IMG/VR virus record: IMGVR_UViG_3300034106_002415
Coordinates: 1 to 62,617 of that record
Source of the DNA: a virus
Taxonomy: Duplodnaviria; Caudoviricetes
DNA length: 62,617 nucleotides
Reading direction: 5' to 3' (one strand)
Part shown: positions 4,664 through 30,036 of the stretch, in pieces
Layout of the letters: each line of letters opens with the position of its first letter
How positions within the stretch are numbered: the stretch's first letter is position 1
Made by a program: the position numbers and the translations under genes
Notes under the pieces: model-generated
The model's input: only the letters and a program-made list of their open reading frames with translations
What the model was told of the DNA's origin: nothing
Databases searched by the model: none

Positions 4664-7600
4664 ATGGCTTCCGCTGAAAAGTATGCCGCTTGGATCGTAG
4701 CCAACGCCAATAAGCGCGGCACTCCAGAATTTGATACCGTTGCCAAGGCGTACCAAGAAGCCAAAGCGCTTATGGTAAGCCGCCCCGTTGATTCCTCGGT
4801 TTCCAAGCGCGGTGCAGAGCTTGATGCGGAGGAGCGCGCCGCGCAGGAGAAGCTGGCGCAGGACACTCAGAGGCTCGAAGCCTACAACCAGAGTGCCGTT
4901 GGTAAGTTTCTTGCGGCCCCATCGCGGTTGTTTGGTGGGGAGTCGTTTGCTGAAGAGCAGCTTGCAAAACGTAAGGCGGATGCCGCCGAAGTTACTAAGC
5001 GCATCAACCGCGAGCGGGCTTTCATGGAGCGGGAGGGGCGTGCTGCTCCTACACCCACCTTTGGTGAACGTGTAGCCGGTACCCTTAAGTCTATTCCGCG
5101 TGGGGCCATCGAAGGTACGTCGCAAGCCCTTGGTACTTTGGGTGTTTTTGGTAGCGAAGGCGAACAGACCGCTCGCGCTGCGGAAGAACGCGGTACGGCT
5201 TTTGCAAAGAGCCTTGGACTGGGCGCGAGCGAAACCGCCGAGTTTGATCCGATGCAACGCAACCTCGAAGCATTTGGCGGCGGTCTCGGTAGTGTTATCC
5301 CGTATCTCGGTGCAGAGGCAGTGGGGCAGAGGCTCAAGCCGCTTACCAAGGCGGCCCCTTATGTTGCCCGTGGTGCGCAGGCTATCCTTGGTTCTGGTCA
5401 GGGTGCTTCTCAAGCGCGCCAGCAGATGGACGACTTCGAGAAAGAGACGGGGCAAGAAATTGATCCGACCACACGCAAGCTGGTGCAGGCTGGTGGGGGT
5501 GCTATCGGCCTGACTGAACTGCTGCCGGTTGGGCGTATGCTGGACAGCCTCCCAGGGCCGATCAGGACTGCGGTCAACAAGCGCATCACGGACATCGTCA
5601 CTCAAACCGGTGCAGGGAAGCTGGTTCCGGAAGCCGCGCGCACTGCAATCCGCGAAACCCTTCAAGCAGTTGAGAGTCGGGCTGTCGGTCGAATTGCCAC
5701 CCGTGGCGCACTTCCTGAAGCAACACAGGAAGGCGGCGCGCAGCTTGCTCAGAACGTGCTGGAGCGCGCGGCATACAACCCTGATCAAGATGTGATGGAA
5801 AACGTCGCTGAGAACGCTATCCTTGGCGGCCTTGTGGGTGGCACTGTGCGCGGTGGCTTTGAAACCACTAGGGCTCTTGGTAAGCGGGCAGCGGATAACC
5901 GGCGGAAGGCTTTCGAGCAGACTGCGGCCCCTGTTGAAGAGTTCGATATCAACGAGCGCAGTACGGAAGACCCCACGCAGCTGACGCGGCAACGGGTGCA
6001 GCGACTGACCGATCCTGATGAAGACGGTAACGTATTTGCCCGCCGCGCTGATGGTACCGTCTACCAAGCGTCGATGGCTGAGTTGTACCGCATGCGGGTC
6101 CCGACTGATGGTATCCGTGCTGTTCCTATCCCCGAGACGCTCGCGGCTCCGGCTGTTACGCAGCGCTTGACTGCCGCTCTTGGTGATACCTCGTCTGATC
6201 TAGATGTTGACGGCTTCATTAAAAACGTCGCGACGACGCTCAACAACGGCATGGCGTTGGGCAACCCAGAGAGCACGGAAGACTATATCCAGAAGCAGCG
6301 GAATAGCTTGCGTAGGGCGCGCATTTCGGAAGAAGAGCGCATCGCACGTATGCTGGTGCTGGACGAAGCGACGAAGCTCAACGACGAGTATATGAACCTC
6401 GTCACGATGCCGCCTGAAGGAGCTGCCCCTGACACCGCCACGGCGACACCGACATCAGAAGCCCCAGTGCTCTCGGACGAGGCGATTCAAGCTCAAATTG
6501 ACAGCATGCGGGAGCAGGCTGCGCAGCGTGCGGAGGCACTAAAAGAAATTGCGGGCGACTCCAACCAGATTGATAAGGTTAGCATCTTCGCAGACCGCAT
6601 GGCTCAGAGTGGTCTGGCGGCTCCGACGCCGGTTGAGGTAGCACGTCTGAATGACGCGCTGCGCGCGGAGTCTGAAGCCGAGACGGCTGCGGGTCGTGAA
6701 GAGACAGCCCAAGAGCGGCGGCGAGTCCTTGACCGTGCAAATATCATCGAGAGCGTGCTCTACGATGACCGCATCTCTGCGGATACCAAGGTTGACCGCA
6801 TCAACGCCAAGATGCAGGGGAAGGGTCTTGGTCCACTTAGCCGGTACGAACTTGAACGTATCGCGGGTGTCGATTCAGCCAACGCCGTGTTTGGTCCTGA
6901 AGGTGAGTTTACGCAGCGCCGAGACGCACTGCTGGAGCAAGTCCTTGCCGATCCTACCATCACGGACAAGTACCGTGGGTTCACTGAGCAACTCGACCAG
7001 TATCCGGAGCTAGGCGACCCCAGCCCAGCAGAGATACGCATTTTGCGCGGCGATGCAGCGTCCCTTGAGGCACAGATTCCGGAGAGCGGAGAACCTATTA
7101 CCTCTGAGCTGATCCCTGAAGGACCTGGCAATATCTTTGCGGATAGCGCCAACGCCGCTACGGTGACCGAGCCTGCGCCGGAAGTGGTGGAAGAGCCCGC
7201 GCCGGAAGTGGTGGAAGAGCCTGCGCCTGAAGTGGTGGAAGAGCCCGCGCCTACGGATATATTTAGAACCGACCTTACCGATTATGGTTCGTTGGTGGGG
7301 CGCAATGCTCCTGTGCCTGAAGAGCTGGTTGATGCTATCGCTGATAAAGTCATAGACCTTGTCGAAAATAACGATACGGCTACGCTTGCTGAACTCAGCG
7401 CGGACCCAGAACTTGGGCCTGTAATCCAGCAATTTTTTACCAACGAAAGCGCAGCGATTACCAAACGGGGTGTCGAACGCGCCAAGGCCGCACAGCCCGC
7501 GCCTACGGCTGCCACGCAGACGATCAACAACCCCGAAGAGGACGTCACTCCGGTCGAAGAGCAGCTGGAAGCCGATCCCAACACTGTCGAAGGTGCGTTC

Positions 7601-10369
7601 CCTGCATCCCCCAATCGTCCTCGTGCCGAAGCTATTGGCTTTGCGGCTGACATGGAACGCCGCGTCAAGAGCATGTCGAGCCGGTTTATCCGTGCGGCAA
7701 ACTACAAATACCAGACCGCAGAGGACTACGCACGGGCACTGGCTGCCTCCTACGGCCTCACGCAACTGCCGCCCAACCTCAATGTGGCTCGTAAGTTCGA
7801 ACTGCTGGAAAGCCGCAAGGTCGGTGGTCAGATGCGGCTCAACCGGTGGTATCTGCAACCGATCGAGGACAAGGTAAAAGAACTGGGCCTCGACCCCAAG
7901 GACGTCGGAATGTATCTCTGGGCGCGGAGTGCCGCTGCGCGAAACGCGCTGGTCCTTGAGCGCAGTGGTGAGATAAACGGCTCCGGCTTGACCGATGCCC
8001 AAGCGCAGGCTCAACTTGCCAAGCTTGAGCTCGAAGGCCTCGGCCCCGCGTTGCGCGAAGTCGCCAAGCTGCATGATGCCCTGGTGGATTATGTTGGCAA
8101 CCAGCGGGTCAAGGCTGGGCTTCTCTCCCGTGCCGACTGGAAGGCTATGCGTAAGGCGCAGCCGTTCTACACGCCACTCAAGGGCTACGCGCTGAACGGA
8201 GATATGCAAGTCGATGGTGATCCTGATCCGCATAGTGCTGAAGAACGCGGCATCGCCGAGAGCAACGGAACCCGTATCCGTGAAGTGCTGACTGCGCGTG
8301 GGCGCGAGTCGATGCCGTTTAGCCCGCTCTTCAACCTTATGTCCGATGCGCAGTTTGCTATTGCCCGTATCGAGCAGAACAAGGTCAAAGAGGCGTTCCT
8401 CGACAACGTGCTTAGCGACCCCAAGAGCCACGAAGGCCTCGTCACGGTCTACACGCCGAAGAAAGAAGTGCATGCGGGCGGCCTGACCACGCGGCCTAAG
8501 ATGGGGGAGAACGGCCCCGTCAATATGAACCAGCTTGCGGCCCAGAAGAACCCTAGCTTGATGATCGTCAAGAAGGACGGCAAGCCCTACTATATTGAGT
8601 TTGCCAAGACACCTGCGGGGAACGCCCTCTATCGTGCGTTTGCCAACATGACGCCGCCGGAACTGGGTAAGTTCATGCAGGCGGCGCAAGAGGTCTCGAA
8701 TACCATCAAGTCGTTCAAGACCCGTTACAATCCGATCTACATCGGCACCACGGCTTGGGCTCGCGACTTCAACGAAGCTGTCGTTACTGCCTATGCTGCG
8801 CAGGGTATCAAGGGGGGCCCCGCAGCGGGCACCAAGCTCGCTAAGCGGACTGCTCGGTACATCGCATCATTGAGCGGTATGGGCACCATCACCGACTACC
8901 TCAAAGGTAAGGACCCGACCACGGCTGAAGGTGAAATACTGACGCTGCTGTTCGACCAATTCCTTGAGGATGGTGGTGCAATCGGTCACGCGCAGGTTAT
9001 GGACGCTGAGCGCTACGCGCAAGATACAGCCAAGGCCATTGAACGTTACGCCGCTGCTAAACGCGGAGACCCTAGAGCCGCTGCGCTGATGGCCAAGGAT
9101 ATGACGGCGAAGGCGCTGGATAATGCTTCACAGCTTATCGATTTGCAGGCGCGCTTTGCTACGTATCGAGCAGCTATCGAGCAGGGTATCAATCGCGAGG
9201 ACGCAGCTGCACTGGCGCTTGACTCATCGCTAAACCTGACACGGCGCGGCGAGCTGTCCCCTTACCTAGATACGTGGTCATTCTTCTTCAGCCCGACTGT
9301 GGAAGGCGCGCGCAAGCTGCTGTCTCAGGGCCGTTACAGCACGATTGCCCGTAAGTTGTTTTCCAAGGCGGTTATGGTCGGTGCGTTAATGTACCTCTTT
9401 AACCGCTTTGGCCCTGGTGCGGGTGATGACGATGAAGATGGGCGTCCGAACATCCTTGAGGTGAACAATCCAACTGCGCAGTCGCGGATGATCTTCCGAT
9501 ACGGCCCCGGTGTAAACGAGTATGTGGCTGTTCCCGTGGCTTTCGGTATGGGGTACTTCAATTACGCGGGCGGTCAGATCATGGCTGCGGTACTGGATGA
9601 CATCCCGCCGGAAGAGGCTGGGTTCAATATCGTTAGCGGCTTCACGAACATGGCCTCGCCGATCAAGACAGAGGGCACCGAAGGGCTGACCAGCATCGTC
9701 AACTTCGTCATCCCTGACCCAGTGCAGCCGCTTTGGGACTTGGTCGTCAATCGCAGTGCTTTCGGATCAAAAATTTACAGCGACAAGTCTCAGTACGGCA
9801 CACTGCCCAAGTCGGAGCTTGGACGTGAAGAGACCGGAGAAGTCTGGAAGTTCATCGCGCGAGGTATGAACTCTCTCGCAGGTGGCACCGATACGGTGGA
9901 AAAATGGACAAGCATGCAGCCGGAACAGTACCGGTACATCGTGCAGCAGTTCCTTGGGGGTGCCTACGGCTTCGGGCGCGACACGGTAGACTTGGTTGCG
10001 GGTGAAGCCAAACCGGATCAGATGCTCCTGAACCGTATACCGATCATCAAGTCGTTCTTCGGTAGGGGCGGCGAGTTTGCCCCCATGAACAAGTTCTACG
10101 AGGACTACGACGAGCTCAATGCGCTTTACGCGGTCTATAACGACGAGGAGCCCGACTCCGAAAAGCAGGCTGAGAACGAAGCGAAGTTCCCCATGCAGAC
10201 CGATCCGGAGGTTATGGACGCCTTCGGGGATGCCCTGTCGGAGCTACGCAAGATCAACAAGGACAACAGGGACGGCGATTACGCTTCGAGAGAAGCGATG
10301 CTTGCGGACAAAAACAAGGTCTACGAAGACTTCAACCGCGTCTACGCAAAGGCCAAGCGGGGCGAATGA
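4664..10369 (+). CDS. Large ejection/polyvalent virion protein (1901 aa), C-terminus resembling LPD38
   Basis: Last and largest gene of the late arm; helical, acidic linker; C-terminal NLTRRG..FFSPTVEG..P....N...FG..I pattern typical of large polyvalent phage proteins. Confidence 0.6.
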   Translation: MASAEKYAAWIVANANKRGTPEFDTVAKAYQEAKALMVSRPVDSSVSKRGAELDAEERAAQEKLAQDTQRLEAYNQSAVGKFLAAPSRLFGGESFAEEQLAKRKADAAEVTKRINRERAFMEREGRAAPTPTFGERVAGTLKSIPRGAIEGTSQALGTLGVFGSEGEQTARAAEERGTAFAKSLGLGASETAEFDPMQRNLEAFGGGLGSVIPYLGAEAVGQRLKPLTKAAPYVARGAQAILGSGQGASQARQQMDDFEKETGQEIDPTTRKLVQAGGGAIGLTELLPVGRMLDSLPGPIRTAVNKRITDIVTQTGAGKLVPEAARTAIRETLQAVESRAVGRIATRGALPEATQEGGAQLAQNVLERAAYNPDQDVMENVAENAILGGLVGGTVRGGFETTRALGKRAADNRRKAFEQTAAPVEEFDINERSTEDPTQLTRQRVQRLTDPDEDGNVFARRADGTVYQASMAELYRMRVPTDGIRAVPIPETLAAPAVTQRLTAALGDTSSDLDVDGFIKNVATTLNNGMALGNPESTEDYIQKQRNSLRRARISEEERIARMLVLDEATKLNDEYMNLVTMPPEGAAPDTATATPTSEAPVLSDEAIQAQIDSMREQAAQRAEALKEIAGDSNQIDKVSIFADRMAQSGLAAPTPVEVARLNDALRAESEAETAAGREETAQERRRVLDRANIIESVLYDDRISADTKVDRINAKMQGKGLGPLSRYELERIAGVDSANAVFGPEGEFTQRRDALLEQVLADPTITDKYRGFTEQLDQYPELGDPSPAEIRILRGDAASLEAQIPESGEPITSELIPEGPGNIFADSANAATVTEPAPEVVEEPAPEVVEEPAPEVVEEPAPTDIFRTDLTDYGSLVGRNAPVPEELVDAIADKVIDLVENNDTATLAELSADPELGPVIQQFFTNESAAITKRGVERAKAAQPAPTAATQTINNPEEDVTPVEEQLEADPNTVEGAFPASPNRPRAEAIGFAADMERRVKSMSSRFIRAANYKYQTAEDYARALAASYGLTQLPPNLNVARKFELLESRKVGGQMRLNRWYLQPIEDKVKELGLDPKDVGMYLWARSAAARNALVLERSGEINGSGLTDAQAQAQLAKLELEGLGPALREVAKLHDALVDYVGNQRVKAGLLSRADWKAMRKAQPFYTPLKGYALNGDMQVDGDPDPHSAEERGIAESNGTRIREVLTARGRESMPFSPLFNLMSDAQFAIARIEQNKVKEAFLDNVLSDPKSHEGLVTVYTPKKEVHAGGLTTRPKMGENGPVNMNQLAAQKNPSLMIVKKDGKPYYIEFAKTPAGNALYRAFANMTPPELGKFMQAAQEVSNTIKSFKTRYNPIYIGTTAWARDFNEAVVTAYAAQGIKGGPAAGTKLAKRTARYIASLSGMGTITDYLKGKDPTTAEGEILTLLFDQFLEDGGAIGHAQVMDAERYAQDTAKAIERYAAAKRGDPRAAALMAKDMTAKALDNASQLIDLQARFATYRAAIEQGINREDAAALALDSSLNLTRRGELSPYLDTWSFFFSPTVEGARKLLSQGRYSTIARKLFSKAVMVGALMYLFNRFGPGAGDDDEDGRPNILEVNNPTAQSRMIFRYGPGVNEYVAVPVAFGMGYFNYAGGQIMAAVLDDIPPEEAGFNIVSGFTNMASPIKTEGTEGLTSIVNFVIPDPVQPLWDLVVNRSAFGSKIYSDKSQYGTLPKSELGREETGEVWKFIARGMNSLAGGTDTVEKWTSMQPEQYRYIVQQFLGGAYGFGRDTVDLVAGEAKPDQMLLNRIPIIKSFFGRGGEFAPMNKFYEDYDELNALYAVYNDEEPDSEKQAENEAKFPMQTDPEVMDAFGDALSELRKINKDNRDGDYASREAMLADKNKVYEDFNRVYAKAKRGE
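7168..7252 (+). repeat. 24-bp coding tandem repeat (EPAPEVVE x3)
   Basis: gagcc(t/c)gcgcc(g/t)gaagtggtggaa repeated three times plus a partial copy. Confidence 0.9.
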
Positions 10370-10403
10370 AAAAACCCCCGCTGGGGGGAAACCAGCGGGG
10401 GTT
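10369..10403 (-). terminator. Intrinsic terminator of the minus-strand arm (possibly bidirectional)
   Basis: 12-bp stem aacccccgctgg/ccagcgggggtt followed by U6 on the minus strand, at the point where the two arms converge. Confidence 0.85.
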
Positions 10404-10407
10404 AGTA

Positions 10408-10431
10408 CAACCTGAGAGGAGCAAACTCTCA
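10408..10431 (-). ncRNA. Candidate anti-RBS hairpin (3' UTR-derived sRNA or decoy)
   Basis: Minus strand reads UGAGAG-UUUGCUC-CUCUCA-GGUUG, complementary to the shared AGGAGCAAAC RBS of minus-arm genes. Confidence 0.5.
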
Positions 10432-10443
10432 CGCGCCATATAG

Positions 10444-10638
10444 CTAAACGCGCCAGATACGTAAACCCCTGACGCCATCCTCGACGACAGATTTCATCAC
10501 GACGCTGAATCGCAGCCGATCCATGACGGGGCGCACCTCTCGCTTTGCTCGGACGGGGTCGAGGCACGGGATAAAGATCGACGTGCCTCGTTTGAACGCC
10601 TTCCAGTTGACCTGGTAACTAACCTTCTCAACCTGCAT
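10444..10638 (-). CDS. Small conserved phage protein
   Basis: 64 aa from ATG 10638; W..F..G.SIFIP...GLRIWRV pattern like that of 22522..22773. Confidence 0.65.
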   Translation of the reverse strand: MQVEKVSYQVNWKAFKRGTSIFIPCLDPVRAKREVRPVMDRLRFSVVMKSVVEDGVRGLRIWRV

Positions 10639-13498
10639 CGGCGCTCCCGACACCTACGACGTCACCCACACTGAAGAACTCTTCCGAGGCAGTGTTGAGC
10701 TCCAGACAGTAGACCGGCGGGGCAACCATCTTCATGCCCTTGTTTAGCCGCTTAACCATCTTACCGGTAAGCACTCCACGCTCCGTGAGGTACTGCATGG
10801 TCTCTTTGTAGTTGACCTGAAACTGGGCGCAGTCGCGCTTAAACGGTGCAGCTGCGATGTACATCTTCTGCGTATCAGGCTCCCAGCGGATCAGAAGCTC
10901 GCTGCGCGGCTCCAGTATCGGAGCGGCATGCATGTTGGACCGTGCGTCCGCTTCTTCGTTGACCACCAAGATGCTCTGGATGTTGCGACGGATGAAGTCA
11001 CCAACCACTTCGATGGCGTTGTTGCGCGGCGGCTGTACGTCCTCGCGAAGGCTGAGCAGCATCTTGCATGCCCAGTCGTAGATGCGCGGCATATCCCAGT
11101 CGATCAGGCCGATGTGCTTAGCAATCGCGCCCCCAGCAAGGTTAGCGGCCAGCACTGCCGACCAGAAACGCTCGCGCTGTGTCAGCTTCAGCTCGCGGTC
11201 AAGCTTCGACTGTATCTGAAGCGCGGTCTTCTTAGCCTGCTCGTGGTTGGCGACGAGCCACGCAGCATAGATGCGCCCAGCGTGTCCGTTGTTTTCCATC
11301 AGCTGGTGATCGAACATGTTCTTGGCCATCAACGGGTCAAGGGTGTCGGTGTAGTCGATCTTGTACTCCACGAGGCGCATGAGCTCCCCGTCAGGGCTGT
11401 TCTTGGCCACGCCCATCTTCTCGTAGAAGGATGCGTTCGATGAGCACAAAGCCATTGTCTGCCACGTAGTGGCATTGTGTCGCAGTTCGTTTGATGATGC
11501 TTTCACGCGGTCCTTACCGCGCCCTTGGGTGATGTTGTACACCAGCGTGGAGAAGTCCTGCGGTGTCATGTTGGTCATCTCGTCCACCGTGTACGGCAGA
11601 TTGTTCATGACCCCGAGACGCAAGACCTTCGCGTTCAGGGTGTCTTCCTTCACGCAGCACAGAGCATCCGGCGTACCCCAGATGCTGTTGCACATATGCA
11701 GGATGGTGGTCTTGCCCGTACCGGAGTGCGGGTGGATGACGTTGAGCATAGCCCCCCGCTGGCCAAGGAACTTGAAGATCGGTGCGCCAAAACCTGTCAG
11801 CGCAGCGAACGCATGCGGCTCAAGACCAGGACGCCCGTAGAGGTTGAAGACCTCTTTCCATTTGTCCAGTGAGCCTACGGGCCCCATTCGTTCTGCGATT
11901 GCCGCTGTGATCGACGAGGGCGGGCTGTAGAACGTACCCTCCACCGTGACCTCCGAATCACCGATGATAAACTTGCTGTCGTTATCCGCCCAACCAAACT
12001 GAAGTCTCATTTGTTCTGCCTTTCGTTTTTCTGAAAGCGCCATCAGTGACGCTCGTATGTACTCTGCTAGATACTCAAACCGCTTCTTACCGCACAGAAT
12101 GCTCTCCCCTGCGAGGAGCTTGCGCAAATCTCCTGGCTCTGAAATCTTGATGAGGGGAGCCGTGAACTCGCGGACACCGTCCTGCGGAGTGTGAAACTTG
12201 AAGACCGCCACGTCCTTCTCGATGGGGTCGCGCATGCGCTTCAAGATGTAGAAGTCATAGGGCAGCACGAGGATGTCGCCTTCCTCAGTGGGCTTGCCAT
12301 CCCGCCCTAGGGGAGCCTTGCGGTAGATACCCCCAGCTTTGCCCCGAAAGAACGGGAACGGGTACTCAGGGATGATGTGGGTCTTGGGTGCAAACCCTTC
12401 TTCCTCCGGCTCCTCAACAACCACGTTGTCTTCTTCGGTGGCTGCAAGCACCTCATTGCCCAGCGTGATGGGCGACTTGATCTTCTCCGCAAACGGGCAC
12501 CCGTCGCAGCCCCCTGGGTTGCCGCGCTCGAATGTCTCGCAGGTGTGCGGCCCGACAATGTGCTTTATCTTCTGTAGCGTCTTGTACGGGTCGTAGTCTG
12601 GGTGGCCCTCCGACATAGTGTGGATGGCGGTGTCTTGGTCTGCGCAGAACTTCGCTACCGACAGGGCGCTGAACCAGCGGTTCTCAGCCAGTGAGGTCCG
12701 GTTCTCGTAGCAGTCCAACAGCTGCTGGCAGCCGTTCCCAGCGATGCTACGCTGTAGGATTTTAGCAAAGCTCGAAGTGATGTTCTCTTGCAGCGACTTG
12801 GCAAGCTCAGAGAGCTCACGCTTGGGTGTCTCAAGCGGGATCAGGTCCGGTGCCTTCACCCCGAGGATGCTGTAAAACTCTTCGAAGTCTACGGGCTTAG
12901 CGGTCGCCAGCACCGTGACATTGTGCGGTGGGTCGTCCTTGTAGTTCAACGTGCCTGGCACGCGCAGGATACGCGCCACCTCGAAGACGGCGGGGTCCAC
13001 GTAAAGCTCATGGGTGTTGCACAGCTTACGCAGCCGTTCGGCTACAGGCTCCCACTGCTCCCTTGTGACAGTTCCCGTCAGCGCCCAGTATACGTGTATG
13101 CCGCGCCCTGAGTTGACGATGATGGGACGGGGTAACCCGACAGTACGGCAGAAGGCTTGAAGCGCGGCCAGTCCGGTAGCTTGATCGACGTAGCCATCGG
13201 GGCGTCCCGTCTTGGGGTTGGGCTGCGCCTTGGCTTCACCGCAGTCGATATCAAGCCAGAATGCCTTGAGCCCTTGGACGTTCTCCTTGGTGCGGTTCGC
13301 GTCCGTAGCGTACTTGGCGACACCGAAGAACACGTTCCATCCGCCCTTCGAGCGGCGTTCAACGAGGACATCAACCTCTTCGCGCGTGGATAAAAAGTCC
13401 TGCCTTCGCTGCAATTCCTTGCCGGAGCCCTTGAGGCTCACGACAGCAAACCAGCCATCATCTGGTTGTACTGCTCTGAGAAGATCGAAGTCGGTCAT
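10628..13498 (-). CDS. Primase-helicase (AEP primase, DUF927-like region, P-loop helicase domain)
   Basis: AFWLDID and SGRGIHVYW AEP motifs, RILRVPGT; Cys cluster TCETF..CDGC; Walker A SGTGKTT, Walker B YTVDE. Confidence 0.85.
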   Translation of the reverse strand: MTDFDLLRAVQPDDGWFAVVSLKGSGKELQRRQDFLSTREEVDVLVERRSKGGWNVFFGVAKYATDANRTKENVQGLKAFWLDIDCGEAKAQPNPKTGRPDGYVDQATGLAALQAFCRTVGLPRPIIVNSGRGIHVYWALTGTVTREQWEPVAERLRKLCNTHELYVDPAVFEVARILRVPGTLNYKDDPPHNVTVLATAKPVDFEEFYSILGVKAPDLIPLETPKRELSELAKSLQENITSSFAKILQRSIAGNGCQQLLDCYENRTSLAENRWFSALSVAKFCADQDTAIHTMSEGHPDYDPYKTLQKIKHIVGPHTCETFERGNPGGCDGCPFAEKIKSPITLGNEVLAATEEDNVVVEEPEEEGFAPKTHIIPEYPFPFFRGKAGGIYRKAPLGRDGKPTEEGDILVLPYDFYILKRMRDPIEKDVAVFKFHTPQDGVREFTAPLIKISEPGDLRKLLAGESILCGKKRFEYLAEYIRASLMALSEKRKAEQMRLQFGWADNDSKFIIGDSEVTVEGTFYSPPSSITAAIAERMGPVGSLDKWKEVFNLYGRPGLEPHAFAALTGFGAPIFKFLGQRGAMLNVIHPHSGTGKTTILHMCNSIWGTPDALCCVKEDTLNAKVLRLGVMNNLPYTVDEMTNMTPQDFSTLVYNITQGRGKDRVKASSNELRHNATTWQTMALCSSNASFYEKMGVAKNSPDGELMRLVEYKIDYTDTLDPLMAKNMFDHQLMENNGHAGRIYAAWLVANHEQAKKTALQIQSKLDRELKLTQRERFWSAVLAANLAGGAIAKHIGLIDWDMPRIYDWACKMLLSLREDVQPPRNNAIEVVGDFIRRNIQSILVVNEEADARSNMHAAPILEPRSELLIRWEPDTQKMYIAAAPFKRDCAQFQVNYKETMQYLTERGVLTGKMVKRLNKGMKMVAPPVYCLELNTASEEFFSVGDVVGVGSADAG

Positions 13499-14727: not shown

Positions 14728-15129
14728 TTACTTTCCAGTTGGCTTACGTACGCGGACTACATATTTGGTATCGGCGTTCAGGCCGATGGGCAGGTCTTCT
14801 GGGTTATCCTCAAGGAACTGGCGCATGTTGCCGTTGTGGATGCGCTGCTCAAGCAGGAAGGGCGCATCTCGGTCCTTGATGAATTGATACATCGACTCCC
14901 AGTCACTCGTCCAGAACCGAGTGGTTGTCGAGCGGGTAACCGTACCGGCAGCGGTGCGGATGCTGTCTAGGTTCTGGTCGTTGCACAGCGTCAGCAGTGC
15001 TTCGGAGACGACGTCCTGCTGGGCCTTGAGCGCAGCTATCTCCTCCTTGTGTGCTTCTTCCTTCTCGTTAATCGCATCCCGTATCCGCCGGTATGTGAGC
15101 ACGAGCTCGTCGGCTTTGGCATCTTGCAT
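14728..15129 (-). CDS. Conserved phage replication-region protein
   Basis: 133 aa, coiled-coil N-terminus, RTAAGT and LLEQRI motifs, RBS AGGAGCAAAC. Confidence 0.7.
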   Translation of the reverse strand: MQDAKADELVLTYRRIRDAINEKEEAHKEEIAALKAQQDVVSEALLTLCNDQNLDSIRTAAGTVTRSTTTRFWTSDWESMYQFIKDRDAPFLLEQRIHNGNMRQFLEDNPEDLPIGLNADTKYVVRVRKPTGK

Positions 15130-15156
15130 GGTTTGCTCCTTCTTGGTTGTCTCCCT

Positions 15157-15184
15157 AAGATATTCTTACACTACACAATGTCAA
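15157..15184 (-). promoter_or_regulatory. Sigma70-like promoter
   Basis: TTGACA-N16-TATCTT upstream of 15129. Confidence 0.55.
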
Positions 15185-16743
15185 GCACTTTGTAAAATTT
15201 CTTGTCGGTACAGGTCAATAATTTGTCGGTGGTTGGCGATGTTACCCTTAAGCATCTGATAAAGCTTAACTTCCACGTCGCTACCGCTGATGTGCACGAT
15301 GGTCATCGGGTGCTTCTGCCCTGGTCGATCGATGCGCGCGTTGGCCTGTAGGTAGGTCTCGACAGAGGTCGTCGGGGCGTACCAGATTATGGTGTCAGCT
15401 TCGGTCAGCGTGAGCCCGTGCGAGGCCGCCTTCGGCTGGATGAGGAGTACACGGGGATGCTCGCTGGACTGGAACCGCGCGACGATATCGCTGCGTTTGT
15501 TGAGGGGCACCTTGCCGTTGATGACATCGCAGCTGATCTTCTCTTTCTCTAAGGTGCTGCGCAACAGCTCGATGGTGTGGGTGAACGGCACAAACACCAG
15601 CACCTTGCGGGTGGTCTCCTCGATGGCCTCCAGCACGACGTTGATTCGGTTGCTGACATCAAAGTGCACGACTTCGCCAGTATCCGAGTAGACGGCACCC
15701 CCACTGATCTGGAGCAGCTTGTTGAGGCGGGCGGCTGCGTTGACGGCGCTAACCTCTTCCCCGTCAGCCTCCATGATCATCTGGGTCTTGAGGAGCTTGT
15801 AGTACTTCTTCTGCTGCGCGGTAAGCGGTGCCTCGCGTTCGGTGTGCGTCACCTGTGGCAGGTCCAAGCACTGGCTCTTCTCGAACCGTATGGCGGGTTG
15901 CAGTATGCGGTGCACGACCGACTTTGCCTGCGGTTTGACCCCCCACTTGAACTGCGTGATCTTGTACATGACCGAGTCGCGGAAAGACCCGTAGTGTGGG
16001 GGGCAACCTTCAGGGTTCACAAGCTTGGCAAGACCGTAGGCATCGAGCGGAGACTGCGCCGCCGGCGTACCAGTGAGCATCCACAGGCGCGGATCAGTTG
16101 TCTTGATGAGCCGGTTGAGCACCTTCCACCGCGTGGTCTGCGCGTTCTTGTATGCGGTTGCCTCGTCAACGACGATGAGATCGAAGCCCCCTGCGGCAAT
16201 CGTTTCCTCCACGACTGCCACACCGTCGAAGTTGATGATGACGAAGTCAGAGCCGGCCTCAATGATCTTCTTGCGCTGCTTCGCATCCCCGTGCGCCACA
16301 GAGCAGCTGCGGTGCATAGCAAACTTAAACAGGTCCCCCTGCCATGCGGCCTTCATGATCGAGAGCGGGCACAGCACCAGCACCCGCTTCACGAGCCCCT
16401 TCTTCATCAGGTAGTCAGCCGACCAGATGACACTCGCCGTCTTGCCGGTGCCCGCCTCGCTGAAGCAGAACGCTTTGCGGTGAAGGCTGAGAAACGATGC
16501 CGTGGTCTTCTGGTGCGCGAAGGGTGTGAGCCTGCCGGTCCACTCGTAGTCCCGCAGGATGGGCGATGGGACATCTTCCACACCCAAGGCAGTCAGCTTT
16601 TGTGCTTCCTTGATACCCCAGTGCACGGCGACTTTGCTCAGGTCCTTGCGGCGCTCCATCAGGGCGCTCTTCTTTATCGACCCGATAATTGCCGCAGGCT
16701 CCCGTGTCTCCACGAGGAGAACCTTGTTATCGATGATCCGCAT
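15181..16743 (-). CDS. SNF2-family DEAD-like helicase
   Basis: AGTGKT, IVVDEA, LTGTP and QANARIDRPGQ motifs. Confidence 0.9.
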   Translation of the reverse strand: MRIIDNKVLLVETREPAAIIGSIKKSALMERRKDLSKVAVHWGIKEAQKLTALGVEDVPSPILRDYEWTGRLTPFAHQKTTASFLSLHRKAFCFSEAGTGKTASVIWSADYLMKKGLVKRVLVLCPLSIMKAAWQGDLFKFAMHRSCSVAHGDAKQRKKIIEAGSDFVIINFDGVAVVEETIAAGGFDLIVVDEATAYKNAQTTRWKVLNRLIKTTDPRLWMLTGTPAAQSPLDAYGLAKLVNPEGCPPHYGSFRDSVMYKITQFKWGVKPQAKSVVHRILQPAIRFEKSQCLDLPQVTHTEREAPLTAQQKKYYKLLKTQMIMEADGEEVSAVNAAARLNKLLQISGGAVYSDTGEVVHFDVSNRINVVLEAIEETTRKVLVFVPFTHTIELLRSTLEKEKISCDVINGKVPLNKRSDIVARFQSSEHPRVLLIQPKAASHGLTLTEADTIIWYAPTTSVETYLQANARIDRPGQKHPMTIVHISGSDVEVKLYQMLKGNIANHRQIIDLYRQEILQSA

Positions 16744-16762
16744 GTTTGCTCCTCAGTGCGGG

Positions 16763-18220: not shown

Positions 18221-18230
18221 TGTTTGCTCC

Positions 18231-19016
18231 TTACTTCAGATTGCCACCGCTCTTCAGGATATCACCGTCGTATGTGTACGTGCCGGTGTGTGTCAGGCGG
18301 ACAAAGGGGTGGGCGTATACTTTGCCGCCGTGCTTCCGCCACAGCTCACAGAAATGGTAGTCCTCCGACAGAAGGGCCCCGCTCTCGTCGATACTGGTAG
18401 CGAAATATTCGTGGGTGAGGGGTTTAGCGTACTCACCCGTATCTGGGTCTTGGAAGGATGACACTCGGTAGGTCGGCACATGCGGTGCAAGATGCTCGAA
18501 CACACCGCGCTTGATAAGCATGAAGCCAGTGCCGCCATGGCGGACCTCGATGCACCCGCTCTCGTCGGACTCAGCGTCTGCGCCGCCAACCATGTTGAAC
18601 ACGAACGCCCCAGCGTGATGCTCTAGCTCATCCAGCTTGCCTGCGCTTGCAGCGCGCTTGACGCTATCCCAGTTCACTTCCTTCTTGGGGTAGATACCGC
18701 AAGCGATGTCTCGGTCAGTGAGCATAAGCTGCGCCACTGCGTCCCCGTCGAAGCCGATGTCAGCGTCGATGAACATCAGATAATCGTGACCGCTCCCCAG
18801 GAACACACGCGCCAGCTCGTTACGGGCGCGGGTGATAAGGCTCTCGTTGGTGATCTGGCACCACGCCACATGCACCCCCAGCTCACGCATCTTGGCGACC
18901 GTGAACAGCAGACCTTGCACATACGCACCTGTGCACATGCCACCGTACATAGGGGTAGCAATCATCAGGCTCGGGCGCTTGGCCTCGACCGGCTTCACCT
19001 TGATTTCGTCACTCAC
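18231..19016 (-). CDS. GT-A fold glycosyltransferase-like protein
   Basis: IATPMYGG, LITRARN, LMFIDAD (DxD), GTGFMLI and SEDYHFC motifs. Confidence 0.75.
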   Translation of the reverse strand: MSDEIKVKPVEAKRPSLMIATPMYGGMCTGAYVQGLLFTVAKMRELGVHVAWCQITNESLITRARNELARVFLGSGHDYLMFIDADIGFDGDAVAQLMLTDRDIACGIYPKKEVNWDSVKRAASAGKLDELEHHAGAFVFNMVGGADAESDESGCIEVRHGGTGFMLIKRGVFEHLAPHVPTYRVSSFQDPDTGEYAKPLTHEYFATSIDESGALLSEDYHFCELWRKHGGKVYAHPFVRLTHTGTYTYDGDILKSGGNLK

Positions 19017-20236: not shown

Positions 20237-20252
20237 TGGTTTGCTCCTTTCA

Positions 20253-22073
20253 TCAGCCCCCGTAGGAGGGGCCCATCTTGCTCTCACAGTTCAACGGCAA
20301 CGCCGTTGCCCACTTTGGGCGGATACGCATACACTGCTCAACGAACGCACGGGCTTCATCGCGTGAGCTAGCGGGCGCTAGCGCACCCACAGCGTCATGC
20401 ACGGTCATCACCACACGGTAGCGCCGCGCGACCATCAGCATCTGCTCACCGATCACGATGCGGGCCAGGGCCTGACAGATATTCTCGACGGCCTTCCCAC
20501 CATAGATGCGGTTAGGGATGACGGCCTTACCCTTCTTCTGATCGTAGACCATCTCGGTCTTGCCCTCTGGGGTTCGCACCGTGCGTAGGTTGGGATACTT
20601 GATGGAGAGGCCGTTCGGCAGCTTGATACCGTCCGCACCGCACACCGTCAGCACACCGTCACGACCCAAGGGGGCAGTCTGGTTGCTGGCCATGGCGTCG
20701 AGTGCGCTCCCAGCTTGCCGCCACAGCTTCGGGATTTGCGCGTAAGCCTCCCGATACACCTCGATGATGCGCTTGCATTCGTCCAGTTCCATGTCCACGC
20801 CAAAGGTCTTCAACTGCGCCTTGAACTTGGCCGCCCCCATACCGTAACCGCAACCCAAGATGGTGGTCTTACCCACGAACCGCTGGCCGTCCGCCACCTC
20901 TTCGACAGGCACATTGTAAATGGATGACGCCATGATCTTATAGACATCCTCACCGGCATCGAAGGCGGCCACGAGGTCATCCTGTCCAGCAAGCCAGGCC
21001 AAGGTGCGCGCTTCGATCTGGCTGCTATCGCAGTCGATGAACGCATAGCCCTCGGGTGCCAGCATGGCTTTCTTCAGCGGTGACTTGCGTGGGAGATTCT
21101 GGAGGTTGACCTTGTCGTCGCCACCCCAGCGCCCCGTGTGTGCAGCGTAATAGCGCAGCGGAACAGGCAACGCACCACGCTCCGCAATCTTGATAAACCG
21201 CTCGGTGCGTGTCTCCTCAAGGGTGGACTTCACCCCTAGCCGCGCAGCGACAATGGCCTGCACCTGTGGGTTCTCATGCTCCAGCAATTCCTTGAACGCC
21301 TCGTCGTTCTTGGCAAACGCAAAGGTCTCCTTGCCTGTGGTTGGGCTGATCTTCATGGGCGGCACAACACCGTGGAACGTCAGCAGCTCGGCCAGCTTGG
21401 GGTTGCTCATCAGGTCGGCCTTCTCGTAGTTGAGCTTGGCCATGAGAGCTTCCTTCTGGGCTTGGACATTAGCCAAGTGGTCGGTCAACACCTGCTTATC
21501 CAGGACGAGGGCCGGCTCAGAGAACATTCGGATGGTCAGGTCGATCAGACGAAACTCCACTGACGGGAAGCCCTCACCAATGCGCTTGAACAGCTTGTAC
21601 GTCAGCTCCACGTCGTTGATGCAGTAGTCGCCGTAGGCCGCCAGTTCTTCCGCCGTGAAGTCCAGTCGCCCCTTGCCCAGCGCGTTGACAACCTCGGTGC
21701 CCTTGACGCCCAGCCCATACCGCTCGACGGCTCGTGCCAGGCTATTGCCAGCATCCGGCCCATCCAGTGCCCGCAGCATGGACAGGGTATCCACAATGCG
21801 CTTGGGTCGGATGTCGAACCGCCAGTTCATGATGGCCATATCGAACATCGCGTTGTGCGCGATGGCGATGCTGTTGGCCCAGTCGAACCTATCCAGCCAA
21901 GCCTTGGTCTGCTTGACTGTGCCGGAGAACCACTGCGCCGGCTCGTCGTCCACCTTTACGGATACGCCGATAGCCTCAAAGCGCGAGTCACGGACATACT
22001 CCTCCGTTGTGATCTTCGACAGGCTGAACTGCTGGCTGTAGTAGGTCTCGAAGTCTACGGTCAGGATGGTCAT
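20253..22073 (-). CDS. polA: DNA polymerase family A with 3'-5' exonuclease domain
   Basis: ExoI DFETY, ExoII HNAMFD, ExoIII YCINDV; TGRW, motif A DSSQIEAR, motif B KTTILGCGYG, motif C VHD; start reassigned to ATG 22073 with AAGGAG. Confidence 0.93.
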   Translation of the reverse strand: MTILTVDFETYYSQQFSLSKITTEEYVRDSRFEAIGVSVKVDDEPAQWFSGTVKQTKAWLDRFDWANSIAIAHNAMFDMAIMNWRFDIRPKRIVDTLSMLRALDGPDAGNSLARAVERYGLGVKGTEVVNALGKGRLDFTAEELAAYGDYCINDVELTYKLFKRIGEGFPSVEFRLIDLTIRMFSEPALVLDKQVLTDHLANVQAQKEALMAKLNYEKADLMSNPKLAELLTFHGVVPPMKISPTTGKETFAFAKNDEAFKELLEHENPQVQAIVAARLGVKSTLEETRTERFIKIAERGALPVPLRYYAAHTGRWGGDDKVNLQNLPRKSPLKKAMLAPEGYAFIDCDSSQIEARTLAWLAGQDDLVAAFDAGEDVYKIMASSIYNVPVEEVADGQRFVGKTTILGCGYGMGAAKFKAQLKTFGVDMELDECKRIIEVYREAYAQIPKLWRQAGSALDAMASNQTAPLGRDGVLTVCGADGIKLPNGLSIKYPNLRTVRTPEGKTEMVYDQKKGKAVIPNRIYGGKAVENICQALARIVIGEQMLMVARRYRVVMTVHDAVGALAPASSRDEARAFVEQCMRIRPKWATALPLNCESKMGPSYGG

Positions 22074-22267
22074 TTTGCTACTCCTTGTGGTCGCACCCAG
22101 CGCCTGCCGCGCTTTTCGTGTAGGACTAAGCTGACCGGCCCGTCCTGCCCGTAGACCCATGCGTAGTGCTGGCCCAATATCAGCGCTCCATCCACCGTAT
22201 CGGCGTACGCCTGCGCCACGACGTACCCGTCCTGCGTGACGCGCGCTCGGTATTCGGTCATACCCAT
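22070..22267 (-). CDS. Hypothetical protein
   Basis: 65-aa ORF coupled to the polA start. Confidence 0.5.
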   Translation of the reverse strand: MGMTEYRARVTQDGYVVAQAYADTVDGALILGQHYAWVYGQDGPVSLVLHEKRGRRWVRPQGVAK

Positions 22268-22521
22268 TACTCCCCATCGCGGTCGATGGCCCGCTTAATC
22301 AGTATGTAGCTAGGGGCTACAATCAGTGCGACCACCGTCCAGAAAAGTATCGGGTCATGCATCGGCCTGCTCCCTCGCTACCGTTGCCTTGGCCTGCCAC
22401 AGGTGCGCCTTGGCGCGCTCGGACAGCACCACTGGTCTCATTGCCCCGTCAGGGTATCGCCAGTAGAACCTACGGTTGTGGATCACCACGTTTGCGTCTC
22501 TGCTAGAACGGCGTTCGGCTG

Positions 22522-23628: not shown

Positions 23629-24443
23629 TGGTTTGCTCCTTGGTTGATGAACTTTTTAATCTTGGTTATGAGTTCGAGGGCTTCATTTAGCTGTTTACTA
23701 TGCCCCCCGCCCTTCCAGCTTGGGTGTGTAGGGCCCTCCATTATACCGTGTATCTCTCGATACTTCATTATGTTGCGCGCTCTGAATGCGTTAAGACACT
23801 CAGACGAACAGCATAGGTGGGCGTCAGGATGATACTTGCGATGTGTCCGTTGGTTCAGTGACGGAGTAAAAACCGTTTTGCACTCATGGCATGAAGCATC
23901 GTCGTAGTATCCTGACGCTATCAGTTCTGCGGGCCGGTACTCTCTCCTAGTAAGTACCTGTGATTTCTGCGCGGGAGACTTCTTGTTTAGATTTTTCCAG
24001 CATGACTCACAGCAAAACCTGGTGTCGGTACCCTTTGCAAGCCACCTTGAACGCTTTTGGCTCGTTAACGGCACATCTGCACCGCAGAGTATGCAAGGTA
24101 CGCTTTGCGGTACACTTGCTCGGCGTTCCTGTTCTTGCCTCCACTTGATACGGCGTTCCTCTTTCGCTTCCTTGGTGTAATGGCCGTTTTTCCATTGTGA
24201 GTGTGCAGGGCCTGTCCGCTTGTTGTTATGGTTATATGCAACCAAGCGATCCCTAGCAGCCTTTTGAGCCGGTGACCCCCATGGAGGCATCTTACCCGAC
24301 TCCCACCGTGCCCGAGAATGTTGACCACGCGACAGGTGAAGGCACGGCTTTGAGCAGTAGACTGTTCTGGCCGCCCGAATGTTTTCACGCTGCTTTACAC
24401 TAGGCGCAAACTCTGCGCTGCACACGCCGCACGTAGCCATCAC
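23625..24443 (-). CDS. Multi zinc-ribbon DNA-binding protein, homing-endonuclease-related
   Basis: Three CxxC...(Y/F/L)C.S..C units plus HSQWKNG and HPSWKGG motifs; more AT-rich than neighbours. Confidence 0.55.
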   Translation of the reverse strand: MMATCGVCSAEFAPSVKQRENIRAARTVYCSKPCLHLSRGQHSRARWESGKMPPWGSPAQKAARDRLVAYNHNNKRTGPAHSQWKNGHYTKEAKEERRIKWRQEQERRASVPQSVPCILCGADVPLTSQKRSRWLAKGTDTRFCCESCWKNLNKKSPAQKSQVLTRREYRPAELIASGYYDDASCHECKTVFTPSLNQRTHRKYHPDAHLCCSSECLNAFRARNIMKYREIHGIMEGPTHPSWKGGGHSKQLNEALELITKIKKFINQGANQ

Positions 24444-24742
24444 ACGCCCCCCTTCATGTCACGAACTAGGGGGCGCACCATCTCCCAGTTCTCCTCGTTA
24501 GCCACCACAGCCACACCGCCAGCGAGGCGGATGCTCTCGATCTCACGGGTTTGCAGCGCGGTCGGCCTGTTAGCGCCTGCCTTGCACTCAATGGCGAGGA
24601 AGCGACCGTTCACACAGGCGATGATATCCGGCACCCCACTGCGACCGTAGCCGTGCGTGGCAGGGAAAAAGTAGTACGCGCCCTCGCTCTTGAGGACGGA
24701 CTCCACCTTAGTTTTTATGCGCTTTTCTGGTGTTTGCGCCAT
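24440..24742 (-). CDS. VRR-NUC domain nuclease (Holliday junction resolvase-like)
   Basis: PE, GVPDII, IECKA and TALQ motifs. Confidence 0.85.
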   Translation of the reverse strand: MAQTPEKRIKTKVESVLKSEGAYYFFPATHGYGRSGVPDIIACVNGRFLAIECKAGANRPTALQTREIESIRLAGGVAVVANEENWEMVRPLVRDMKGGV

Positions 24743-24766
24743 GAGTTTGCTCCTCTTGGTTGGGTG

Positions 24767-25620: not shown

Positions 25621-25631
25621 GTGCTTGCTCC

Positions 25632-25835
25632 TCAGTTGCTATCCCAGTGGTGGTAGCCCGCGCCGTTGTCGCCACGGCCCCTGTCGTAGGCGTCCTCGCG
25701 TTCCTCGTCGGCCCGCTCCACCAGCACCATCGCAAGCTCCTGCCAGTTGGTGTCGGTGTTGGTGCCATACTTCACCCAACGCTTCAGGCCTTCCCAAGGC
25801 AGGGTGCGGAAGTAATCACGATCCTTCTTAGTCAT
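25632..25835 (-). CDS. Hypothetical early protein
   Basis: RBS AGGAGCAAAC. Confidence 0.65.
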   Translation of the reverse strand: MTKKDRDYFRTLPWEGLKRWVKYGTNTDTNWQELAMVLVERADEEREDAYDRGRGDNGAGYHHWDSN

Positions 25836-26031
25836 TGGTTTGCTCCTTCTTCGTTAGGCCCAGCGCATACAGGCGCTGGCGCAGGTGGTTGGGGGCAAAG
25901 CCCCACAGGCCAAGCACGTTTCGACCATACAGAGCGCACTCCTTGTTAAGCTCTGCCTCAAGGGCGCGTAGCTGTGCCTTGGCCTCGTCGTACTGGTGCA
26001 GCAGCGTGAACACTTTGAGTTCGTCGGTCAT
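25828..26031 (-). CDS. Hypothetical early protein
   Basis: ATG 26031 (MTDELKVF) with AGGAGCAAAC. Confidence 0.65.
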   Translation of the reverse strand: MTDELKVFTLLHQYDEAKAQLRALEAELNKECALYGRNVLGLWGFAPNHLRQRLYALGLTKKEQTND

Positions 26032-26041
26032 GGTTTGCTCC

Positions 26042-26407
26042 TCAGTAGATTTCGATCTCGCGGCGGATACCCAGGCGATACTCACGGTACATCGAACCGC
26101 CGCCCTCTGTGTCGTCGTTGTCCTCGCCGATCCGCACCATCTCCCAGTGCGCCCTGTGGGTTGCGTGTTCCTCGGTGTTGAACGCTTCCTCGAACTCCCG
26201 CACCGCAGCCCATGCTGATTGGACATATTCGTAATCGTCGTACCACTTCACATCGTCGTACTTCACGGTCACTAGTGGGTGGTCGTCGTATTCGAAGATG
26301 CTGCACCAGGCTTTCGGCCAGTGCTTATCAATCCATGCCGCAATCTCGCTGGTCTCTGTTTCGCCCGCTGGGTAGAAGGCGAACATCACATCACTACGGT
26401 AGCCCAT
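26042..26407 (-). CDS. Hypothetical early protein
   Basis: MGYRSDV...KWY....RIGED pattern; GAGGAG RBS. Confidence 0.65.
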   Translation of the reverse strand: MGYRSDVMFAFYPAGETETSEIAAWIDKHWPKAWCSIFEYDDHPLVTVKYDDVKWYDDYEYVQSAWAAVREFEEAFNTEEHATHRAHWEMVRIGEDNDDTEGGGSMYREYRLGIRREIEIY

Positions 26408-26728: not shown

Positions 26729-26739
26729 GTGCTTGCTCC

Positions 26740-27246: not shown

Positions 27247-27285
27247 ATGCTTGCTCCTCGGTTGTGCGGGTTGCTCCCGCTGCTA

Positions 27286-27316
27286 ATTGTGTGACACGCT
27301 GTGTGTCACAGGTCAA
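27286..27316 (-). promoter_or_regulatory. Probable promoter with inverted-repeat operator
   Basis: TTGACC followed by TGTGACAC-N5-GTGTCACA; the -10 element is weak. Confidence 0.5.
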
Positions 27317-29787: not shown

Positions 29788-29811
29788 GGTAATTACTCCC
29801 GTGTGGTTTGA

Positions 29812-30015: not shown

Positions 30016-30036
30016 GATGTTACTCCCGTGATGTGA

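Follow-up and report, generated by a model that had tools for sequence, protein, structure and literature searches.

The IMG/VR virus record IMGVR_UViG_3300034106_002415 (Duplodnaviria; Caudoviricetes) is a complete virus record of 62,617 base pairs (bp) with direct terminal repeats, and it was analyzed here over its whole length (hereafter, the window). Its minus-strand gene arm spans from ~31 kb down to 10,444 and closes with an open reading frame (ORF) of 64 amino acids (aa), which is present in all relatives and for which no Pfam or PHROG family matched. We focus on the interval at the end of this ORF (10369-10446, minus strand), which holds a candidate small RNA (sRNA) whose 5' hairpin carries the complement of an extended Shine-Dalgarno (SD) leader found at the ribosome-binding sites (RBSs) of 11 genes of the same arm. 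Since a plus-strand ORF of 1901 aa ends at 10369, the element sits between convergent genes. The features of the interval are as follows.

10444-10638, minus strand: last ORF of the minus arm, 64 aa, ending ...GLRIWRV* and carrying the -35-like box; its stop codon lies at 10446-10444
10460-10465, minus strand: -35-like box TTTACG within the Gly-Leu-Arg codons of the last ORF, 17 nucleotides (nt) before the -10-like box
10437-10442, minus strand: -10-like box TATATG, weak because it does not end in T; a start is predicted 6 nt downstream, at G10430
10369-10430, minus strand: candidate sRNA of ~61 nt (predicted from the fold and from relatives), consisting of a 5' hairpin, a 10-nt linker, a terminator, and a U tail
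10413-10431, minus strand: anti-RBS hairpin of 5-6 bp, with TGAGAG at 10431-10426, the loop TTTGCTC at 10425-10419, and CTCTCA at 10418-10413
10408-10412, minus strand: GGUUG, complementary to the CAACC box found ahead of the SD in several leaders
10373-10403, minus strand: intrinsic terminator stem-loop of 12 pairs (9 of them G-C), with a T6 tract at 10369-10374
4664-10369, plus strand: ORF of 1901 aa with a C-terminal LPD38 domain (large polyvalent protein type), its 3' end within the terminator T tract

The original prediction, which was made from the letters of the window, placed a 6-bp hairpin with anti-leader sequence between the stop codon at 10444 and the terminator, and this hairpin is present on the minus strand as described. 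Its loop and 3' arm form the exact complement of the leader (G)AGAGGAGCAAA(C), and the GGUUG behind them extends the complementarity to ~22 nt, internal loop included. When folded as an RNA (10430-10367, 64 nt), the interval yields the hairpin and the terminator at -30.3 kcal/mol (z = -5.1), a value that none of 200 shuffled sequences equaled. The terminator works one way, as the T tract is found on the minus strand only and the plus strand after the stem reads TTAGTAC. A peptide encoded within the RNA was considered and rejected, given that the ATG at 10434-10436 is absent in the relative L003.

Leader motif copies and predicted targets

Exact copies of the leader core AGGAGCAAAC occur nine times in the window, of which eight lie on the minus strand, all at RBSs, and one lies on the plus strand at 10417-10426. 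Thus, when both strands are counted, the element is indeed the single inverted full copy. The chance expectation for a 10-mer is 0.06 per strand in 62.6 kb; with up to one mismatch allowed, AGGAGCAAAC has 14 matches versus 3.72 expected, and 0 of 100 shuffles reached 14. The shorter GGAGCAA is followed by an ATG 2-5 nt downstream in 11 of its 12 minus-strand copies, and none of its four plus-strand copies is an RBS. No ATG, GTG, or TTG stands at RBS distance after the plus-strand copy at 10418, in line with the earlier statement that the inverted copy does not serve as an RBS, and no plus-arm gene has this leader. The claimed 14-nt match between the element and the leader of the Hjc/VRR-NUC-like gene (24743-24756) proved exact. 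In addition, the leader motif reaches beyond what pairing with 16S rRNA explains.

Altogether, GGAGCAA(A/G)C is present at 11 initiation regions, which lie between 15.1 and 27.3 kb; in several of them CAACC or CAACUG stands before it, boxes that can pair with the GGUUG and the hairpin arm. These predicted target sites, all on the minus strand, include that of a gene which we call gene X.

15131-15140, minus strand: leader of gene X, AGGAGCAAAC
16744-16753, minus strand: leader of the SNF2 helicase gene, AGGAGCAAAC
18222-18231, minus strand: leader of a 141-aa DUF6378 gene, AGGAGCAAAC
20239-20248, minus strand: leader of a 123-aa gene, AGGAGCAAAC
23631-23640, minus strand: leader of a 75-aa gene, AGGAGCAAAC
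24743-24756, minus strand: leader of the Hjc/VRR-NUC-like gene, 14 nt complementary; best predicted site, with a cofold free-energy difference (ddG) of -22.8 kcal/mol, top of 67 initiation regions
25623-25632, minus strand: leader of a 90-aa gene, AGGAGCAAGC, with CAACTG before it
25838-25847, minus strand: leader of a 67-aa gene, AGGAGCAAAC
26033-26042, minus strand: leader of another 67-aa gene, AGGAGCAAAC
26731-26740, minus strand: leader of a 77-aa gene, AGGAGCAAGC
27249-27258, minus strand: leader of a 168-aa gene, the first of the operon, AGGAGCAAGC

A whole-genome duplex scan with a 38-nt seed was not discriminating, with chance GC-rich duplexes scoring -39.6 kcal/mol versus -39.7 kcal/mol for the true leader; therefore, the RNA was cofolded against 67 translation-initiation regions of the window. 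Averaged over the 11 motif sites, the net cofold energy was -14.5 kcal/mol, whereas the remaining minus-arm sites (20) and the plus-arm sites (36) averaged -4.7 and -2.9, respectively, and the eight best of the 67 sites were all motif sites. Leaders with a CAACC box reached ddG values of -14 to -23 kcal/mol. The pairing is thus thermodynamically feasible.

The genes of the minus arm that we could assign are listed below.

14728-15129, minus strand: gene X, 133 aa, DUF7307/Pam3 gp33-like, in the replication module; the predicted target conserved family-wide
24440-24742, minus strand: Hjc/VRR-NUC-like nuclease
20253-22277, minus strand: family A DNA polymerase
15181-16743, minus strand: SNF2 helicase
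10628-13498, minus strand: DUF927 primase/helicase, 956 aa

The assignment of gene X draws on a weak Pfam match to DUF7307 (E 0.0011, below the cut-off) and on DUF7307 clusters in the ESM Atlas. It also matches PHROG 13900, whose label "minor head protein" is doubtful within a replication module. A PDB profile search gave nothing below E 0.46, and its AlphaFold model (pLDDT 86.5) had no Foldseek match at E <= 0.001. No lysogeny genes were found among the scanned window ORFs, and the window has no tRNA genes; a tRNA gene (52.3 bits) is present at L015:948-1022, in the replication arm of that relative.

Upstream of the motif genes, at 27281-27316 on the minus strand, we observed a promoter-like TTGACC followed by a 21-bp palindrome (TGTGACACACAGCGTGTCACA), after which a hairpin, GCGGG-AGCAA-CCCGC, presents sense GGAGCAA with no start codon. 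This segment is probably the promoter/operator and 5' leader of the motif-gene operon. In the complete relative G001, two tandem AGGAGCAAC units without start codons lie at 27108-27142. Since the motif genes begin just downstream of the TTGACC and palindrome at ~27.3 kb, the leader class coincides with one long operon that ends at the terminator described here. Three of the earliest minus-arm genes share another extended leader, ACGGGAGTAAnnA(C)C before ATG (29793-29800, 30020-30027, and 30222-30229, minus strand), and no inverted copy of it was found outside genes. A second anti-leader RNA for these early GGGAGTAA leaders was considered and rejected, as minus-strand TTACTCC occurs only inside genes. 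That the earliest genes (29.8-30.2 kb) share a different leader, GGGAGUAA, is a hint that leaders mark temporal or operon classes.

Conservation and co-variation in related phages

With the aim of following the element across relatives, we searched viral contigs with the primase and obtained 162 related stretches, of which 80 were kept, with primase identities of 48-100%. Seven of these loci stop within 250 nt of the end of the primase gene and were left out; among the 73 examined, 72 were read by script and L070 by eye, and together with the window they comprise 53 distinct sequences. No cultured relatives were found by blastn. The best tblastn match was Pseudomonas phage Rollin (29.7% primase identity), in which overlapping genes follow right after the primase with no intergenic space. 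One relative, which has a further hairpin-type copy of the element, is represented by a 3.9-kb contig that was binned with an uncultured betaproteobacterial metagenome-assembled genome, a link too weak for naming a host. Nineteen DNA sequencing runs hold at least half of the sampled words, and their labels are nearly all lake or freshwater. A single metatranscriptome, X20, matched (share 0.10); its contigs, from a ~91% relative, cover 29 of 30 window bins, and one spans 9818-10688. As these contigs show neither strand, ends, nor level, and DNA carry-over is possible, they neither support nor refute transcription of the element.

A CTCC/TCCT stretch and a strong terminator follow the 64-aa ORF in 72 of the 73 loci, and the stretch is found in 52 of the 53 distinct sequences (CTCC in 50, TCCT in 2). 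The loci fall into two architectures. That of the window has a hairpin at the 5' end whose loop and 3' arm contain the anti-SD sequence. The other begins with a 5' hairpin bearing a conserved CAGUUG loop motif; single-stranded UUCUCCUU comes next, then in some cases an extra hairpin, and last the terminator. Both are present together in one clade (L033, L042, and similar).

The anti-SD hairpin exists in 10 distinct versions, and all five of its pairs are intact in each. Two of them, pairs 2 and 3, occur as either A-U (6) or G-C (4); GAGAG/CUCUC, GGAAG/CUUCC, and GAAAG/CUUUC are examples, to which L070 adds GGAUG/CAUCC. The 5' hairpins of the second architecture use at least nine different stems around the same loop motif. 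In the terminator, aligned across 17 relatives, the seven predicted pairs include 24 non-Watson-Crick cells, of which 19 are G-U and none is A-C or C-A, which indicates that the minus-sense strand is the folded one. RNAalifold on MAFFT alignments recovered the terminator only; it missed the hairpin because differing loop lengths shift the 5' arms, and hence the hairpin counts were taken from scripts. Furthermore, the convergent gene past the terminator in L003, L005, and L006 differs from that of the window (10300-10368) and the element stays with the replication arm, which places a recombination boundary at the end of the sRNA unit. The anatomy of this unit and its conservation are solid.

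The (G)CAGUUG loop motif itself is kept in 19 distinct relatives, among them L027, L029, L033, L042, L049, L068, L069, L072, L078, L079, and L081. It was considered as a second seed for CAACUG boxes and rejected, as the clades with the motif in the RNA are not consistently those with the box in the leader; a mini-ORF on the plus strand, following the relatives' CAGTTG motif, was also rejected, as its ATG is not conserved.

We then compared the element of each relative with the leaders of its own genes. Orthologues of gene X are present in 66 of the 73 sequences, and the anti-SD sequence of the RNA changes together with the gene X leader, as follows.

Window: RNA seed GUUUGCUCCU; gene X leader AGGAGCAAAC
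L015: RNA seed GUUUGCUCCUUC; gene X leader GAAGGAGCAAAC
L014, L016, L022: RNA seed GUUGCUCCUC(U); gene X leader (A)GAGGAGCAAC
L011: RNA seed GAAUCGCUCCU; gene X leader AGGAGCGAUUC
L033, L042, L074: RNA seed AGUUAGCUCC(UU); gene X leader (AA)GGAGCUAACU
L049, L081: RNA seed AGUUAGUUCCUUU; gene X leader AAAGGAACUAACU
L031: RNA seed UCUCCUUGGUUG; gene X leader CAACCAAGGAGA
L059: RNA seed UGCUUCUCC; gene X leader GGAGAAGCA

The corresponding pairs of 3' element and own leader are GUUUGCUCC/GGAGCAAAC in the window, GAAUCGCUCC/GGAGCGAUUC in L011, GUUGCUCC/GGAGCAAC in L016 and G001, GUUAGCUCC/GGAGCUAAC in L033 and G002, and GUUAGUUCC/GGAACUAAC in L049 and L081. Seed-leader complementarity is therefore kept by compensatory change in at least five clade-specific pairs, and the co-variation of the 3' element with each relative's own leader, which the original prediction had proposed as a check, was recovered in these lineages. 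Among 16 distinct hairpin-type pairs, the gene X leader varies at positions +3, +5, +7, +8, and +9 (counted from the SD's first G), with two to three letters at each, and the RNA is complementary there in 15/16, 15/16, 15/16, 10/16, and 7/12 cases, respectively. A comparison of own and cross pairs (52 distinct) gave duplex energies of -16.2 versus -14.0 kcal/mol and longest matches of 7.6 versus 6.1 nt; the own-pair advantage was not equaled in any of 10,000 permutations, which ignore phage relatedness. Gene X was the best-matching initiation region of its locus in 28 of 52 cases (alone at the top in 19), versus ~6 expected. Collectively, the compensatory changes in at least five lineages strongly suggest base-pairing of the RNA with phage leaders.

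The number of genes with a matching leader differs among lineages. G001 has four ribosome sites with AGGAGCAAC and the complete relative G002 has three with GGAGCUAAC (GGAGCTAAC), gene X being included in both. Hence the earlier idea of a dozen early genes as targets agrees with the 11 sites of the window and does not extend to the sets of four and three; by sequence comparison, the dozen-gene regulon is a feature of the window's lineage, and gene X is the only predicted target conserved family-wide. Separately, a gene of ~100 aa located upstream of gene X is preceded by a leader, TGTGAAYAYAAC(A/C)GGAG, that is conserved across clades (start codons at L011:1775, L012:199, L033:2202, L037:2396, L044:2413, L069:1940, L072:2549, and L080:2369) and may be an operator for another regulator.

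Promoter-like boxes inside the last gene

Further analysis of the same 53 distinct sequences revealed promoter-like boxes at fixed positions. A TAnnnT box begins 5 nt downstream of the stop codon's first base in 44 of them and 3 nt downstream of it in two more (TACACT 15, TAAACT 11, TAGACT 7, and others). Seventeen nucleotides upstream, the Leu codon of the ...GLRVWR* tail is TTG in 37 and TTA in 8, that is, in 45 of 52 distinct contexts, against a TTR background of 30% among the 4,097 Leu codons in the primase genes of the same phages; the -35 of the relatives reads TTGCGN. A start is predicted 6-7 nt beyond the -10 box, and in 52 of the 53 sequences, whichever the architecture, it is the base that opens the 5'-most hairpin. 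The window clade and L015 (6 of 53) have TATAyr in place of TAnnnT, and the -10 box of the window is the least canonical of the family.

These regularities make independent transcription of the element likely across the family and leave it uncertain in the window itself. Most relatives have an apparent promoter for the RNA inside the last coding sequence (CDS), so that the RNA may arise independently of the operon's 3' end, although release from that end would give a similar RNA. The proposal of an sRNA derived from the end of the early transcript stands with respect to its position in the 3' untranslated region (UTR), and the boxes do not favor the transcript's end as its only source.

Interpretation and relation to known RNAs

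We consider it fairly probable that the interval encodes an antisense RNA of ~61 nt that acts in trans and blocks the ribosome sites of 11 genes in the operon running from 27.3 to 10.4 kb. Transcription of the RNA would start at the weak promoter within the final 25 nt of the 64-aa ORF, or the RNA would be freed from the 3' end of the 17-kb operon beginning near 27.3 kb, or both; in each case it would end at the intrinsic terminator. Its 5' hairpin would offer UUUGCUC in a 7-nt loop, from which pairing would spread to the CUCUC of the 3' arm and to GGUUG, so that the RNA could pair in trans with the extended SD leader (CAACC..)GAGGAGCAA(A/G)C of the 11 operon genes, among them gene X, the SNF2 helicase, and the Hjc/VRR-NUC-like nuclease. 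Covering the RBS would most likely lower translation, with messenger RNA decay possibly following. We infer from the sequences that the RNA is made, acts in trans, and represses, and it may conceivably serve as a timer; the element probably tunes the translation of the phage's own genes.

Several findings weigh against this antisense reading. Part of the seed lies within the 3' arm of the hairpin, and the complementarity of a CU-rich RNA to SDs is partly trivial. In the window, a sigma-70 scan found no promoter at the element; the -10 box TATATG is without the usually essential final T, and the -35 box matches at four of six positions. Moreover, these promoter rules are those established for E. 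coli-type sigma-70 and may not be those of the phage's host. Gene X is not top-ranked in 24 of the 52 pairs, mostly because only the CUCCU core matches its leader, and the RNA matches that leader imperfectly in L012 and L030. In G003 and G004, 9-10-nt matches concern other genes only and are near chance given the shared SD core; the 400-aa orthologues G001_31691 and G004_6580 are both matched. The neglect of phage relatedness in the permutations counts on the same side. Finally, L020 keeps the terminator and a UGGUUGGUGUUGGUC stretch (L020:4819-4890), and its CU-rich anti-SD hairpin is missing, yet the gene X leader AAGGAGCAACC is retained, so the element is dispensable in that phage.

Other explanations have to be set against the same observations. 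It is unlikely that the element acts in cis only, as a stabilizer or termination helper of the 3' UTR or by folding back over 4.6 kb onto the gene X ribosome site, with no free RNA. Its place in the untranslated part of the last gene, the weak boxes of the window, and the empty sigma-70 scan would suit such a role, and the co-variation of the gene X leader fits pairing in cis as well as in trans; however, the boxes stand at fixed spacing with the predicted start on the first base of the hairpin, a plain stabilizer needs no match to leaders, and 11 targets over 12 kb would be hard to serve from one 3' end. We give little chance to a host-directed anti-SD RNA, whose CUCC(U) core would bind host SDs or compete with 16S pairing, the phage matches being secondary. 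The generic CUCCU core is the only feature common to all clades, and the weak Rfam resemblances given below are all to bacterial anti-SD sRNAs, but the clade-specific extensions beyond the SD co-vary with phage leaders.

The suggestion of a plus-strand decoy, offered earlier as the alternative, has lost ground and is, in its broader form, highly improbable. Here, a regulator of the phage would bind GGAGCAAAC, either in DNA or in sense RNA, with the inverted copy as a further site, for instance in the hairpin loop of a late read-through RNA. The motif does exceed 16S pairing, the plus strand also folds into a mirror hairpin, late transcripts could read through a terminator that has no U tract in that direction, and the sites of one protein would co-vary too. 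Nevertheless, the promoter-like boxes, the T tract, and all G-U pairs are minus-sense, and in many relatives the anti-SD sequence is single-stranded between hairpins and has only the SD core in common with the leaders. In addition, the element is kept where the convergent gene differs, and no conserved ORF or start codon follows it on the plus strand. That the element is an inert, inverted scrap of a leader left by chance beside a terminator is hardly credible: L020 does without it, but a 10-mer is expected far less than once in the window, as given above, and relatives with as little as 48% primase identity still have the element, with compensatory changes.

Returning to the trans-acting antisense RNA, we tentatively raise an extension that is possible but doubtful at present, namely that the leaders form a private translational address. 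The operon genes would carry an extended SD as a "zip code" (GGAGCAAAC in the window, and GGAGCGAUUC, GGAGCAAC, GGAGCUAAC, or GGAACUAAC in sister lineages), read by a single ~61-nt anti-zip-code RNA at the end of the operon that would throttle the replication and recombination set as a block. If code and reader co-evolve, co-infecting related phages would not cross-regulate. Should the antisense reading be true, the phage would control a set of its replication genes together, by way of a ribosome-site extension that these genes share and that co-evolves with the RNA, and the relatives would offer a set of orthogonal RNA/leader pairs as possible translational switches. Here, sequence comparison alone identifies an RNA together with its seed and predicted targets, and natural compensatory mutations are seen in at least five lineages of this lake phage group, which is abundant and uncultured.

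Known targets are very rare among the sRNAs of non-temperate-type phages. In the parts consulted, a 2025 review of phage sRNAs covers mostly prophage RNAs (PMC12197685), and a transcriptome survey of virulent Pseudomonas phages gives sRNA candidates with no targets (PMC10914365). No description of the present RNA family was found in the literature, supplementary tables (e.g., Table S1 of PMC12197685, with 38 uncharacterised phage sRNAs) being outside the scope. Rfam has no family at its gathering score anywhere in the window. The best sub-threshold match, in a 351-nt search, was ar14 (RF02344; 25.0 versus 58.8 bits, E = 0.0075), and the Betaproteobacteria toxic sRNA (RF02278; gathering score 50 bits) gave 13.2 bits in the window and 27 and 24 bits in L030 and L051, from among 10 relatives scanned. 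These resemblances (ar14, suhB/mmgR, and the Betaproteobacteria toxic sRNA) all concern bacterial anti-SD sRNAs.

According to the consulted portion of PMC10746234, the alphaproteobacterial ar14 (NfeR1) and AbcR are multi-target sRNAs in which unpaired CU-rich anti-SD motifs occlude the RBS, and ar14 has three hairpins, each with an unpaired CCUCCUCCC. In contrast, the window RNA has one anti-SD hairpin and a terminator, with the motif UUUGCUCCUCUC, and it is phage-encoded, whereas ar14 is a bacterial chromosomal RNA with host targets. RF02278 resembles the element in its length of 57-92 nt, its 5' CU-rich UCUCCU stretch, and its terminator, as judged from the model alignment and from the part of PMC4603805 consulted, where its function is given as unknown. 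The arrangement at the end of a gene has bacterial parallels as well: a putative promoter within the final codons of a CDS, a terminator that also serves the mRNA, and a seed directly ahead of that terminator. MicL and DapZ are reportedly 3'-UTR sRNAs of this kind, with a promoter inside the end of the upstream CDS and a terminator in common with the mRNA; they are said to be bacterial and Hfq-dependent and to have host targets.

Among phage RNAs, sar of P22 is a small RNA that blocks translation initiation by pairing at the start region, as outlined in the consulted text of PMC12197685. Unlike sar, the window element lies 4.7-17 kb from its predicted targets and has a contiguous match of 9-14 nt. 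For its part, sar is said to be transcribed opposite its target, as a fully complementary cis-antisense RNA. The same portion of PMC12197685 presents c4 of P1/P7 (immI) as a phage small RNA whose loop sequences pair with the ribosome-binding region of a phage mRNA. The C4 antisense RNA, listed in the part of PMC4603805 consulted under Rfam accession RF01695, was not among the 19 matches at E <= 10 on 10250-10600. Nonetheless, c4 is the closest case in concept, for the window element likewise would pair from a loop to an RBS and is not encoded opposite its target. In c4 heteroimmunity, RNA and target reportedly differ together between related phages. The c4 RNA controls a single antirepressor operon of temperate phages and arises by processing of the very transcript that it regulates, whereas the window element stands at the 3' end of a replication operon, with an apparent promoter of its own and up to 11 leaders that it may address.

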